IMG/VR virus record: IMGVR_UViG_2531839668_000011
Span: 1-43,678 of that record
From: a virus
Lineage: Duplodnaviria > Heunggongvirae > Uroviricota > Caudoviricetes
Reading direction: 5' to 3' (one strand)
DNA length: 43,678 nucleotides
How positions within the stretch are numbered: the first letter of the stretch is position 1; every line of letters begins with the position of its first letter. The position numbers were made by a program. Positions 33,001 to 39,000 of the stretch are shown here, piece after piece.

Positions 33001-36000
33001 GATATGTCGACCAGGAATGACACAGGAGCAGGCGACGATATTAATCACTGAAGCATTCTGGGCTTTGAAAGAGCGCCCGAACATCGATGTTCAGCGTGTC
33101 ACAGATGAAGGTGGCGCGGTTGATCAGCGAGCGCTTGGCGTTAATCGAGTGAAGATATTCGAACGCTGGAAGGCTATCGACACCAGGGATAAGCGTGAAA
33201 AGTTCACGGCGCTAGTGCCTGCGATTATGGAGGCTATCCGGATTAGTGATTTCAGGTTGTATCGTGAGATCAGTGATGGAAAAAGTATTACGTACATGAT
33301 CGCCGGGTTAAATAAAGAATATGGCGATGTGGTGGAATCCGGACTGCTTTTTGCAGATCCTGCCGTTGTAGATCGTGAAACTGACGAACTTATAGAAAAA
33401 GCAATTGCTTTCAAGCTTGCGTATCGACAGCAATACCAACAAAAAGCTGGATGGAATTATGAGTCTTCTTTTTGCTGAACGCCCACTGGTTATAAACACG
33501 CAGCTGGCAATGAAAATTGGCTTAAACGAAGCCATTGTTTTGCAACAACTGCACTACTGGTTGAGAGATACCAACTCCGGCATGGAATGTGATGGTGTTC
33601 GCTGGATTTATAACACAACGGAACAATGGCTGGAACAGTTCCCATTCTGGTCAGAGTCAACGTTAAAGCGCGCGTTTGCAAGTCTGAAAACGCTGGGGCT
33701 TTTGCGTTGTGAAAAGCTCAATAAATCAAAGCGCGATATGACCAATTTCTACACGATCAACTACGGGAGCGAGCTTTTAGATGGTGGCAAATTGAGCGAA
33801 TCCATCGGTTTAAAATGCGCCGCTCCATCAGGTCAAAATGACACGATGGAAGAGGTCAAAATGAAACGCTCCATTGGTTCAAAACGACTCAATGTCATCG
33901 GGTCAAAATGGCCTGATGATCTTACAGAGAATACAACAGAGATTACTACAGAGAATAAAAAGACTTCTCGTCCGGAAGCTTCGCAACCGGACCCGCAGAC
34001 GGTTGAACAGGATTTTTTAACCCGACACCCTGACGCGGTTGTGTTCAGTGCGAAAAAACGCCAGTGGGGCAGCCAGGAAGATTTGGCGTGTGCGCAGTGG
34101 ATCTGGGGGCGAATCGTGAGTCTTTACGAGCAGGCCGCCAGCGATGATGGCGAGATTTCGCGACCGAAAGAACCCAACTGGACCGCATGGGCCAACGACG
34201 TGCGCACAATGCGGATGCTGGATGGCAGAACTCACAGACAAATTTGTGAAATGTTTGGTCGGGTGCAGCGGGATCCATTCTGGGTAAAAAATATCATGAG
34301 TCCGTCAAAGCTTCGCGAAAAATGGGATGAACTGGTTATCCGCCTGGGGCGTTCGTCTGTACAGCGTTGTGTGAATCATATTTCTGAGCCGGATACCGAA
34401 ATTCCGCCGGGCTTCAGGGGGTAAGTGTTAATTTCTGGTCATGAGGTAATTTTCAGGAGGGCTTGTGGCAAAAGTTTTTACACAAGAAGAGCGGGAAAAA
34501 ATTAAAGGGCAGGTTGTTGAACTCGTACGCCGGAGTGGGCGTGAGACGTTACGGCAACTGGAAGTCAAGACAGGTGCGACAAGATATCTGATGAGCGTTC
34601 TCGCAAGAGAGCTGGTTGCCAGCGGCGATGTATACAACTCTGGTTACGGGTTATTCCCGTCTGAACAGGCGCGTAAGGACTGGCAAAATGCCCGTAAAAA
34701 GCTCTCAAGGGCAAAGCTGAAGGAACCATCTGCGGTTGATCCGGACCTTATCTGGTCATTACCTGACGGAGAAATACGTCGCTACGACAGGCGTCAGAAC
34801 ATAATCTGTCGCGAGTGCCGGAAGAGTGAAGTTATGCAGCGCATACTAGCATTCTATCAGGGAAATGCTCGATATTTATTGAAGTGATGAGATTAAAGTT
34901 TATTAGTTCAGATATTGATTGGCTCTTTTGTGGAGTAGGGTAGAGTTAGTGTGTTTGTCTGCTTGGTGCCAGCAGCGGATATGTTTAACAACAGAAAGCA
35001 TTCAGCATGGTTAGTGGATTTGCAAAGTGGATTAGGATTTGAGAAACTTTGATGAAGTTGTAAAGCTTGTTTCTATAAAAATAGAAATTTAACTAATAGT
35101 TAAACACACCTCCAGCTTCATTGAAAAGGATTATTAGCTATGATTGATCCACTTATTAGAAACTTACAGAGTGATATTGCACTACTCCAGCTTTATATCG
35201 CGCAACGCAAACAGGCAGGCTTTCATGACATGGAAAGAATAATTGAGTCATTGACCATCTTTATGTTTCGCGCGCTGAAAATGGGTGAACTGGTAAACAT
35301 GAATCAGATTAAAGTTAATTTTCCCGCCATTGATTTAGCTGATAATAAAAACATGATAGCAGTTCAAGTTACTACGAATGCAAGTCCAGCAAAAATTAAA
35401 AAAACTATCGAATCTTTTGAGAAAATAAATGAAATAGGAGAGAGTCTGAAAGATAAATACTCTACTTTATATATTTTTGGTTTTTGTAAAGCCTCAAGAT
35501 ACCTAACTCCAAGTTATTGTAAAATAATCGACCCCAGCTATTTCGTGAATGAACTTTGCGATAAAGCAGATGAAGATATGGTCCAGGATATGATTGACGC
35601 CATTCGACGCCATCATGATTATACATCATTACATCCATGGAGTGATAAAGATTCACTCGAAATTATACTCAATATTATTAATCGCAATGCAATAAAACAT
35701 CGGATGAGTTGCGAAGGCAGTCTGTCTGATATGCTCACTGGTTTAAAAGAAATTAATGAAGTAATTACAAAAGGAACAATTCAACGTAAGCAACGTTCAA
35801 AATCGATATCTGACTTCAAAGATCAAAGCATGGTGAAATTTATGAGAGGTGTAATGGATGATTTGTCTGTTATTCAAGCCATAGTGAACAAATCTAAAGT
35901 TAACCAAGGTGATATGGTTTATATAAGCCATGAAGATATGATTAATATTGATAAATTAAAAGCTAAAATAGCAAGTGATTCATCAGAGATTGCAAGGCTA

Positions 36001-39000
36001 AATAATATTGATATAACACTAAATGTTGTTGATTTATAATTGTCGATTTAGCAAAACAGAGAATGCTTTGAAAGTTTCACCGAGAAATATTTATTGTGAA
36101 CCTCCTTATTGTTTATCGACTTTTACTCTCCGCTCATTGCAGTACTGTCGGAGAAGGCTACTATGTACAAGAAGCAGCTAACATAAGCGAGCATCACTAT
36201 TGATATTAGGAAGAGTATATAAAAACTTCATGCTGAACCTTACAAAAGTAGGTAAACCGGCAATGGCCTAAGTGGCAGGGTCATGTTGATCCGGCACTGC
36301 CGAGCTAATAATTAACAAGCAAATCACTCTTTCTAATAATTTGTTGAAATAAACTAAATATGTATATGTTTACCAACAACCACATATGAACTACCTGCTT
36401 TGCTCCATGATTTTATTATTTCTAAATTATTATCTGAGCATATTTTACTTACAGTATCCACATCTAATAAACCATAGTAGAAAGCATTGCGAGAGTTTTG
36501 GTATATATACCCATGCAAATGTTTAATACCGCTCTCGTACCTCTTGAAATAAGAACTTTTGTATTGATTGACAATCAGTGCTTCACCATCACTCTTTAAT
36601 AATTCTCTAATCGCACTGAGGACTTTGTGAATTGTGGATTCACATGGAATTGCGGAAAGCACGTTTGCGCAAAGTATGAAATCATAATGATTTGTTATTT
36701 TATCTATATTTTCATAAGAAACAATATTAGCATTCTTATAGTTATTTATCACGTAATCTGGAATCGTGGTTTGTACACCTCTGATAATTTGCACTCTTTC
36801 TAGTTGTCTTCTGGAATCTAAAAATGTCACAGTTTCAAATTTATTTACTAATTGTTCTGAATATCTAAGTTTTCCACATCCAAAATCAAGGGCATTGCCA
36901 TTTTTATTAGTGCTTTCAATCTGTTTACAGAGATAGTTAGATGGCATAGTGTGCGGTTTCGCTGCATTTTCTGAACGTATGTTTATTCCATTTATTTTGT
37001 AATTCAAAATCAACCTCGTTTAAAAAATATTGTTATTGTTAAAGAATTCTTTTATTTTGCTATCAGGTATTTGTCTTACTTGGCTTTCTGTTCTTGGTTT
37101 AACTGATGCTATGAAAATAAGGAAGTCAAATGCGACAAGAGAAATAATCCACAACCAAAGATTAATTAAAGAGCCAGTAACAGAGAATATATTTGTTAAT
37201 TTGGCGATACTTATTATTAAAATAGTAACAAATGCGATTACTGTATGTTCAAAGAAAACCCAAAAGTAATAAACTTTGTTCCAGAAAAGTTCAACGTAAT
37301 GTTTGTCTTTTAACTCTTTAACTTCTGGGTAATACAGTTTACTCATTACCTTGTGAGATTCATCAGTAGTTAATTTTCTCGTAACGCCTGCAATTTTTGC
37401 TAATGGTTTAATAATTAAATGACTATCCCACATCTTCCTTATTCCAATAATTTTTGCTACATTATTATGTAGATCTAAAGCTCCACTAATTACTGACCAA
37501 AAAACTGAAGATGCAATTGGTAATATGCCAAAGGTTAATATCCATTTAATAAATTCCTCGTAGTCTTTAACGGGGGGGATATACTTGGCATTAATGCCAA
37601 CCAATGGCATGTAGCCATAAATGACTAATGATAGGTAAAATATAAATGTAGTAATAAAAGTCGCCTTATGGAGCATAGGCAACATTTCATTATAACTCTT
37701 TGGTGGTTCTAACATTTTACTCTCCAAACACTCAAAAAAAAGCTAATCTTCTATAATAACGAAATTCAGCTGGCACAATTAAAGATTAATTGCCACCAAT
37801 TTCTTGATTTTATAATTTTATCTAAATGTTTTTGATTAATCTAGTCCTAAAAGAAACCTACTGCATAAATATTTATGCTGATGACCCACTCCCTGTTCGT
37901 TAACACATAGCAACGTTAGTAATGCATCCTAAGTGATCAATATTTTTGCTAGCTTCATCTGCTCGCTCAAAGGGAACTATAATGTTGGCTTGCGTGTGAC
38001 TTGGCATGTTTAAAGAAGTGCTGGTGGTGACTGGTTGCTGTTTTCCATTTCCACAGAACAAAATCATAGAAACTATACCCAGTAGTTGTATTGAATCACT
38101 GACGAGACAGCCTCATATTTATCAGGACTGGTGTACGTCCAATACAGGAGGTTGTGGTGCTGGTTCTCAAATGTGCGCTGGCTATTGCTGCTGTAATGGC
38201 AATTTATTGTCTTGCTGTTGTTCTTATGGATCACCTTTCTGATTGATTTCATATTGGCGAGGTAACGGTAGTTAAGTAGAATTGCTGCGGGTGCTTGAGG
38301 CTATCTGCCTCGGGCATCAACACCAAAGGCAGATAGAGAAAAGCCCCAGTTAACATTACGCGTCCGGCAAGACGCTTAACATTAATCTGAGGCCATATCT
38401 ATGCTCTACACACGTAGGTTAGCCTCTTACGTGCCGAAAGGCAAGGAGAAGCAGGCTATGAAGCAGCAAAAGGCGATGTTAATCGCCCTGATCGTCATCT
38501 GTTTAACCGTCATAGTGACGGCACTGGTAACGAGGAAAGACCTCTGCGAGGTACGAATCCGAACCGGCCAGACGGAGGTCGCTGTCTTCACAGCTTACGA
38601 ACCTGAGGAGTAAGAGACCCGGCGGGGGAGTAATCTCCCGCCACCTCTGATGTGCCAGGCATCCTCAACGCACCCGCACTTAACCCGCTTCGGCGGGTTT
38701 TTGCATTAGTCTGGTTGACAAAAATAGAAAAATGCGAAAATATGTGGTTTACGAATTCTAAAAAAAGCGAAACTTGAAATGAATGAAAATCAGTTAGCTC
38801 CTTGTTGGGAATTTCAACCTTATCTTGCTGAAAACTATGTTCGCCACTTGTTGGCGGAGATCGCTAACGTACTTGAGCAGCTGTACTATCATAAGCACGC
38901 ATTAGACAGCAACTGGTCTGAAGGTGTAAGGGCTTATGATTGGGTCAGAAATCATCTTATTCAAAATGAAGATGCAATTCCTGGCCTTGAGATGATTTCC

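Follow-up and report, generated by a model that had tools for sequence, protein, structure and literature searches.

A SMEK-domain protein with a family-specific C-terminal domain, encoded in the variable DUF977-hokD slot of a lambdoid prophage, is a candidate single-gene defence nuclease

The window analysed here is the whole 43,678-nucleotide stretch of IMG/VR record IMGVR_UViG_2531839668_000011, which holds two prophages, termed prophage 1 and prophage 2 in the following. The subject of the analysis is a SMEK-domain protein gene of prophage 2. It lies on the plus strand at 35140-36039 (start codon ATG at 35140, stop at 36039) and encodes 299 amino acids; the protein is annotated in RefSeq as 'SMEK domain-containing protein' (WP_000566848.1). 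The open reading frame (ORF) and the peptide quoted for it in the original prediction, which was made from sequence alone, matched exactly. Annotated copies with 100% identity are present in E. coli genomes, and the 299-residue protein has more than 100 full-length homologues. Between about 35000 and 38000 the GC content drops to 31-34%, compared to 44-50% on either side, so that the strongly AT-rich setting described before is indeed the deepest GC trough of the window. Because the 900-nucleotide open frame sits in such AT-rich DNA, a chance ORF is unlikely. The ratio of nonsynonymous to synonymous substitutions (dN/dS) of the gene was 0.28 against a cassette variant at 88% nucleotide identity. 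A ribosome-binding site (AAGGA) is located 8-13 nucleotides before the ATG, and a leader (34967-35139, plus strand) travels with the gene, as it is kept in the diverged cassette aligned from strain ECO21. A scan for promoters and terminators returned fewer sites than were found in shuffled sequence.

The distribution of the gene is patchy. It was detected in 151 of 5426 complete E. coli genomes, in 146 of them at 99% identity or more and in five at 80-90%. Some E. coli strains contain SMEK genes of 899 or 901 nucleotides that RefSeq annotates as two pieces, probably due to frameshifts. An 87%-identical copy of the enterobacterial protein is encoded on a 3-kb contig labelled Streptomyces sp. 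NPDC088196 (NZ_JBFBIU010000052.1), which most likely represents contamination of that assembly.

The N-terminal part of the protein (residues 1-140; 35140-35559, plus strand) is a SMEK_N domain, putatively a nuclease of the Mrr-like PD-(D/E)xK type. The resemblance to SMEK proteins that had been noted for this part proved real in three profile collections. Pfam SMEK_N (PF21941) matched residues 10-120 with an E-value of 2.2e-22 and 79.9 bits, well above the cut-off of 27, and NCBIfam SMEK_N (NF033859) matched with an E-value of 1.3e-30 and 105.1 bits against a cut-off of 30. The third match was to the PADLOC model Aga_REase-PNTD1-PNTD2 (E 1.4e-20), of which only positions 9-143 of 463, the REase part, were covered; we take this model name to mean the partner protein of short Argonautes that combines a nuclease with APAZ. 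When the N-terminal domain by itself was used as the query of a homologue search, only fragments were returned. A profile built from 38 family members matched one solved structure, PDB 26bh (E 8.8e-13), which is the Mrr domain of the Mrr-APAZ protein of a prokaryotic Argonaute (pAgo) system from Kordia jejudonensis. In this alignment the NFPAIDLAD stretch, the Q-x-T motif and the lysine that follows are paired. Since the scores lie above the cut-offs and the protein has the signature residues in common with the Kordia domain, we assign it to the SMEK_N family. The assignment to SMEK itself is already contained in the RefSeq annotation.

The predicted secondary structure of the N-terminal domain is alpha-beta-beta-beta-alpha-beta. 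When 30 relatives (17-49% identity) were aligned, just four residues of this domain proved invariant, namely E36 (35245-35247), D65 (35332-35334), Q76 (35365-35367) and K85 (35392-35394), and T78 (35371-35373) was nearly invariant; all codons are on the plus strand. The pattern is that of the Mrr-type D...Q-x-K signature with threonine in place of lysine and an invariant lysine on the next helix. Judged from this arrangement, K85 may stand in for the canonical lysine. At the sequence level, Pfam Mrr_cat gave no match at E ≤ 1.

The remainder of the protein (residues 141-299; 35560-36036, plus strand) is a family-specific domain that is predicted to form a helical bundle. It had been described as unassigned, and indeed no Pfam family, including any effector domain of the kind the original prediction proposed to look for, matched it even at E ≤ 10. 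Structure searches with this domain returned generic helical bundles only, and Foldseek found nothing in the PDB at E < 0.1. The conserved positions are D169, R182, A184, E192 (with G193), G212 and L235. A basic hairpin is located at about residues 211-221, and its basic residues are conserved. A profile of the C-terminal domain was searched against 1.84 billion cluster representatives and found only 93 proteins. The full-length ones among these were nearly all 290-320 amino acids long, with the match at about residues 140-300, and all of the 10 distant members that were scanned carried SMEK_N at the N-terminus. The number of representatives, the nearly uniform length and the constant presence of SMEK_N thus define a small family whose two-domain architecture is fixed. 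As judged by these profile searches, the C-terminal domain appears in no other combination.

A HEPN RNase was considered for the C-terminal half and rejected. The idea came from R182-NAIK-H187, which fits the Rx4-6H motif, and HEPN RNases are all-helical like this domain. While R182 is nearly invariant in the 30-relative alignment, position 187 is H or, in many distant members, D (e.g. RPALQD), so that Rx4-6H is not conserved in this family. The domain matched no HEPN family in Pfam and no HEPN structure.

The closest characterised relative is the effector of the K. jejudonensis KjAgo 'SPARMA' system. According to the literature, short-Argonaute systems use SMEK, an Mrr-like nuclease, as effector (bioRxiv 10.1101/2023.06.08.544223; PMC10810196), and the Kordia SMEK-APAZ/Ago heterodimer displays weak collateral DNase activity (PMC12205087; PMC10810196). 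The nuclease domains of the Kordia Mrr-APAZ effector and of the prophage protein are homologous, occupy the same N-terminal position and share the NFPAIDLAD...Q-x-T...K signature. Unlike the Kordia effector, the prophage protein has no APAZ domain; the match ends near residue 145, and the two proteins are unrelated in their C-terminal domains. In the loci examined, moreover, no short pAgo (MID-PIWI) gene adjoins the SMEK gene, and the 299-residue protein is apparently autonomous. Neither the neighbourhood in the window nor the called genes of annotated homologue loci included an Argonaute or PIWI gene. Because both the APAZ domain and an Argonaute neighbour are missing, we do not count the protein among the short-Argonaute effectors.

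The DNA surrounding the gene belongs to a Qin/Rac-type lambdoid prophage. An identical copy of the region was found in strain C3, within a prophage inserted at a tRNA-Ser gene that neighbours mtfA. There, the gene order is integrase, exonuclease, dicB, dicA, dicC, a ydaT-like gene, an O-like replication gene, DUF977 and the SMEK gene, followed by a convergent class I S-adenosylmethionine (SAM) methyltransferase gene, a hypothetical protein gene and then hokD. In the window the left border of the slot is the DUF977 gene (34465-34887, plus strand; Pfam E 2e-30, phrog_142 E 3e-46), which PHROGs labels as a Ren-like exclusion protein. The right border is formed by the type I toxin gene hokD (38458-38613, plus strand), identified as an ORF and from its annotation by RefSeq in the identical copy of strain C3. 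The DUF977 flank is present in 4149 of the 5426 complete E. coli genomes, about three quarters, and the cargo downstream of it differs.

To describe this cargo, the content between DUF977 and hokD was sampled in eight other strains. The slot encodes an FRG-domain protein in SC492, a DUF5677 protein in PK8275 and a SIR2-family protein in O55:H7 RM12579. Strain SC476 contains ISEsa1, ydfW, flxA, ydfV and relBE, a set that resembles Qin of K-12. Two unnamed proteins are encoded in OkiPb01681 and small nin-like genes in STO_Bone1B, and E2348/69 has small unnamed genes, a Q-family antiterminator gene and, in the opposite orientation, three more genes without a name. In W444 the prophage is truncated at the slot and host genes come next. 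This sample identifies the DUF977-hokD junction as a variable cargo site that often contains defence-type or toxin-antitoxin genes, and the location of the SMEK gene in a variable AT-rich slot agrees with the cargo island proposed before. The SMEK gene shares the slot, the patchiness, the AT-richness and the one-gene or small-module logic with the SIR2, FRG, DUF5677 and relBE cargo; the domain composition of the encoded protein differs. That prophage 1 has its nin-region genes in the corresponding place held only in part. A DUF977 gene (3760-4182) precedes the slot of prophage 1 (4183-6495) as well, but two ORFs in low-GC DNA come before DUF968/RusA/Q, which lie at 6496-8549. These ORFs (4366-4824, minus strand; 5026-5679, plus strand) had no Pfam match and the stretch is a dip to 40% GC.

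Related loci elsewhere were found with a 12-sequence alignment, and for 30 loci the ORFs in the flanking 3 kb were all clustered into families. No neighbour family was common to different islands, and the 18 independent contexts had no neighbour in common. The SMEK gene is thus accompanied by no constant partner and is genetically autonomous. The settings include islands with integrase and resolvase genes, a conjugative element and prophages. One locus adjoins SMODS plus S_4TM, ArdC and IS66; on the conjugative element, the SMEK-family gene is found with AbiGi and an N6/N4 methyltransferase. FRG and Mrr_cat genes accompany it in an integrase/Mob island, and an AAA_13 ATPase and an HNH protein in an integrase/resolvase island. 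SymE and a TacA-type toxin-antitoxin pair are further neighbours of the family, and in Pseudomonas the gene adjoins SLATT_5. The SMEK family is hence located on mobile elements among conflict genes. The association with defence islands that the original prediction had mentioned was therefore recovered, with defence, toxin-antitoxin and mobile-element genes as neighbours.

Within the slot, the SMEK gene belongs to an AT-rich cassette of about 2.9 kb (34967-37880), delimited by the blastn block and the GC trough. Besides the SMEK gene it comprises two convergent genes on the minus strand. The first (36354-37013; RefSeq start at 37007) encodes a class I SAM-dependent methyltransferase resembling TehB and Methyltransf_12/23 (Pfam, NCBIfam). 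The second (37020-37727; RefSeq start at 37715) encodes a putative membrane protein of 231-235 amino acids, as read from its hydrophobic stretches; scans against Pfam, NCBIfam, PADLOC and PHROGs gave no family match for it. Strain ECO21 contains the whole cassette as one blastn block, 83% identical and with the same gene arrangement, in a different phage context beside ORF6N, a replicative helicase and RepO. Against ECO21 the dN/dS was 0.28 for the SMEK gene and 0.27 and 0.11 for the other two, which indicates purifying selection. The cassette moves as one block within E. coli. A repeat search found no flanking repeats delimiting it. Disrupted copies exist; one has an insertion of ISVsa5 in the 4-kb region and another an insertion of IS1A in the methyltransferase/membrane-protein pair.

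Outside the cassette the two parts occur separately. Homologues of the membrane protein always have the methyltransferase next to them. The pair was also seen where no SMEK gene is present. In Enterobacter, it immediately follows the replication genes O/P of a lambdoid prophage; P2-like prophages of Enterobacter and Providencia carry it behind ogr, and it was further found on a mobilisable element. Conversely, the pair was missing next to SMEK-family genes in 16 further independent contexts, among them those of relatives that are 77-83% identical, and both were combined in two E. coli cassette variants only. Since the pair and the SMEK gene each occur apart and have no shared neighbours, and since the genes converge, the cassette is best described as two independent modules. 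The convergent orientation also means that they are not co-transcribed. A restriction-modification pairing was rejected, as the adjacent methyltransferase is of the small-molecule TehB-like type and is not a DNA methyltransferase. The original prediction had left open whether the gene stands alone or works with the adjacent operon. Of these options the first is favoured, and partnership found no support. The pair could itself be an accessory or defence module that is mobile between cargo sites.

Taken together, we favour the reading that the SMEK gene is a single-gene, trigger-activated defence nuclease carried as accessory cargo of the prophage, and consider it about evenly probable. This reading draws directly on the domain identity, the catalytic-type residues, the fixed architecture, the autonomy of the gene, purifying selection, the variable slot and the recurrent defence and mobile-element neighbours. 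From these features we infer a nuclease activity, a sensor role of the C-terminal domain, a trigger and a defence phenotype. In the proposed mechanism, the SMEK domain would be the effector, and the C-terminal helical domain would keep the nuclease inactive and act as a sensor or assembly module. It would thereby play the role that APAZ and the short Argonaute have for the homologous Kordia-type nuclease. An infection-related trigger would switch the nuclease on, probably by oligomerisation. The active nuclease would then degrade DNA and thereby stop the superinfecting phage, perhaps with loss of the cell itself. In this last respect the 'abortive-infection' label of the original prediction is one that we likewise only infer. 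A broader notion, in which the SMEK nuclease would be an immune effector that is portable and coupled here to an undescribed helical sensor domain instead of APAZ/Argonaute, is offered tentatively and may well not hold.

Several observations weigh against a defence nuclease. With threonine (T78) at the position of the canonical (D/E)xK lysine, activity would hinge on K85 taking that role. No sensor fold can be recognised in the C-terminal domain, for which structure searches returned generic helical bundles. PADLOC-DB v2.0 contains no model of a known or candidate system that matches beyond the nuclease domain. The accession WP_000566848 was in no paper found, and the papers that name the SMEK domain do not include the stand-alone family. 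A consensus scan revealed no promoter-like site upstream of the gene, which bears on its expression in the lysogen. Finally, prophage 2 also carries genes for NleB and NleH-like effectors of a type III secretion system (T3SS). Prophage slots give a weaker case for guilt by association, because non-defence morons ride there too.

The main rival to a trigger-activated nuclease is direct restriction of the Type IV or another kind, where the helical domain would read incoming DNA and the Mrr-like domain would cut it without killing the cell. Classical Type IV enzymes belong to the Mrr family, and an N-terminal nuclease followed by a C-terminal reader is a known layout, e.g. in the PvuRts1I family. 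The Mrr-like catalytic domain of the SMEK protein and its domain order would thus have a precedent. The conserved basic residues in the hairpin at 211-221 are in line with DNA reading, and a cognate DNA methyltransferase was seen in none of the 18 contexts. However, the Mrr-family Type IV enzymes (Mrr_cat; AspBHI/MspJI-type) differ from the SMEK protein in two respects. They have the lysine of QxK where the SMEK protein has threonine, and they contain an SRA or winged-helix reader where the SMEK protein has a helical bundle. Indeed, no recognisable reader of modified DNA (SRA, winged helix or PUA-like) was found in the C-terminal domain, which is unlike these folds and gave generic helical bundles as its only structural matches, although it may represent a reader of a novel kind. 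Moreover, the closest characterised SMEK nuclease is a collateral effector and is neither sequence- nor modification-specific (PMC12205087). We therefore regard direct restriction as unlikely, although it deserves to be kept in mind.

A role outside defence appears improbable. Here the protein would be a nuclease or nucleic-acid binder serving the mobile element, or its N-terminal domain would be catalytically dead and part of a regulator; such a protein could act in recombination, replication, host takeover or competition with other elements. The gene comes shortly after the replication module and shares its strand, at a position that is of the nin type and concerned with DNA metabolism in lambdoid phages. 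The threonine at position 78, the name 'regulator' in older records and the lack of a promoter of its own would also fit. These names rest on no evidence, however, and the putative catalytic residues do not vary within the family and also occur in an active homologue. The SMEK gene is present in only 151 genomes compared to 4149 with the flanking DUF977 gene, and the family is found equally in non-phage islands and on a conjugative element.

A three-gene system, in which the SMEK protein would act as effector and the convergent pair would, for example, supply a signal or self-protection, was rejected as the leading explanation and is very improbable: the SMEK gene and the pair are each present in 151 E. 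coli genomes with the same identity bands, and a cassette diverged by 12-14% and situated in another phage context has the three genes arranged alike, but the pair without SMEK in lambdoid and P2-like prophages and on a mobilisable element, the 16 SMEK contexts without the pair, the small-molecule type of the methyltransferase and the convergent genes outweigh this joint travel within E. coli.

The stand-alone architecture of about 300 amino acids with a private C-terminal domain, and its use as cargo of a prophage hotspot, are so far undescribed. If the SMEK nuclease is indeed a portable effector coupled here to a helical sensor, the family would amount to a new defence system of one protein that is guide-independent, and infection sensors or oligomerisation switches would gain a new class with the C-terminal domain. 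If active, the gene would be a very compact candidate immune gene (299 amino acids) that re-uses a short-Argonaute nuclease without Argonaute, and it would provide a simple model for the silencing and later activation of a SMEK effector. As a cargo hotspot of Qin/Rac-type prophages, the DUF977-hokD junction is open to mining. The practical value of the SMEK gene is modest, since a RefSeq annotation already exists and the family is small.

Further modules are present around the slot. Just 3' of hokD, at 38779-40513 on the plus strand, lies a gene pair that matches PADLOC RmrT (E 4.6e-25) and RmrA (E 6e-105). RmrA combines a helix-turn-helix (HTH) with an IrrE/M78 peptidase domain and has a sub-threshold NCBIfam match to the spr1629 repressor/antitoxin family. 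As this pair sits directly past hokD, a second module of the defence or toxin-antitoxin type adjoins the slot; in E. coli O55:H7 RM12579 the RmrT/RmrA pair is likewise located 3' of hokD. In the window, the pair is followed in low-GC DNA by a gene for an NleB/SseK-family effector glycosyltransferase (41322-42218, plus strand; E 4e-163) and by an OspG/NleH-like kinase-domain ORF that runs off the end of the window (42974-43678, plus strand) and whose match (E 1.4e-4) is below the Pfam cut-off. Both occupy the position where related prophages are expected to have DUF968/RusA/Q. Four tandem NleG-family type III effector genes are found at 23325-26248 on the plus strand (Pfam T3SS_NleG, E 1e-43 to 1e-47). 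They lie in AT-rich DNA (37-43% GC) with which prophage 1 ends; the integrase gene of prophage 2 (26757-27782, minus strand) follows closely. Given these effectors, the host is probably an attaching-and-effacing E. coli.

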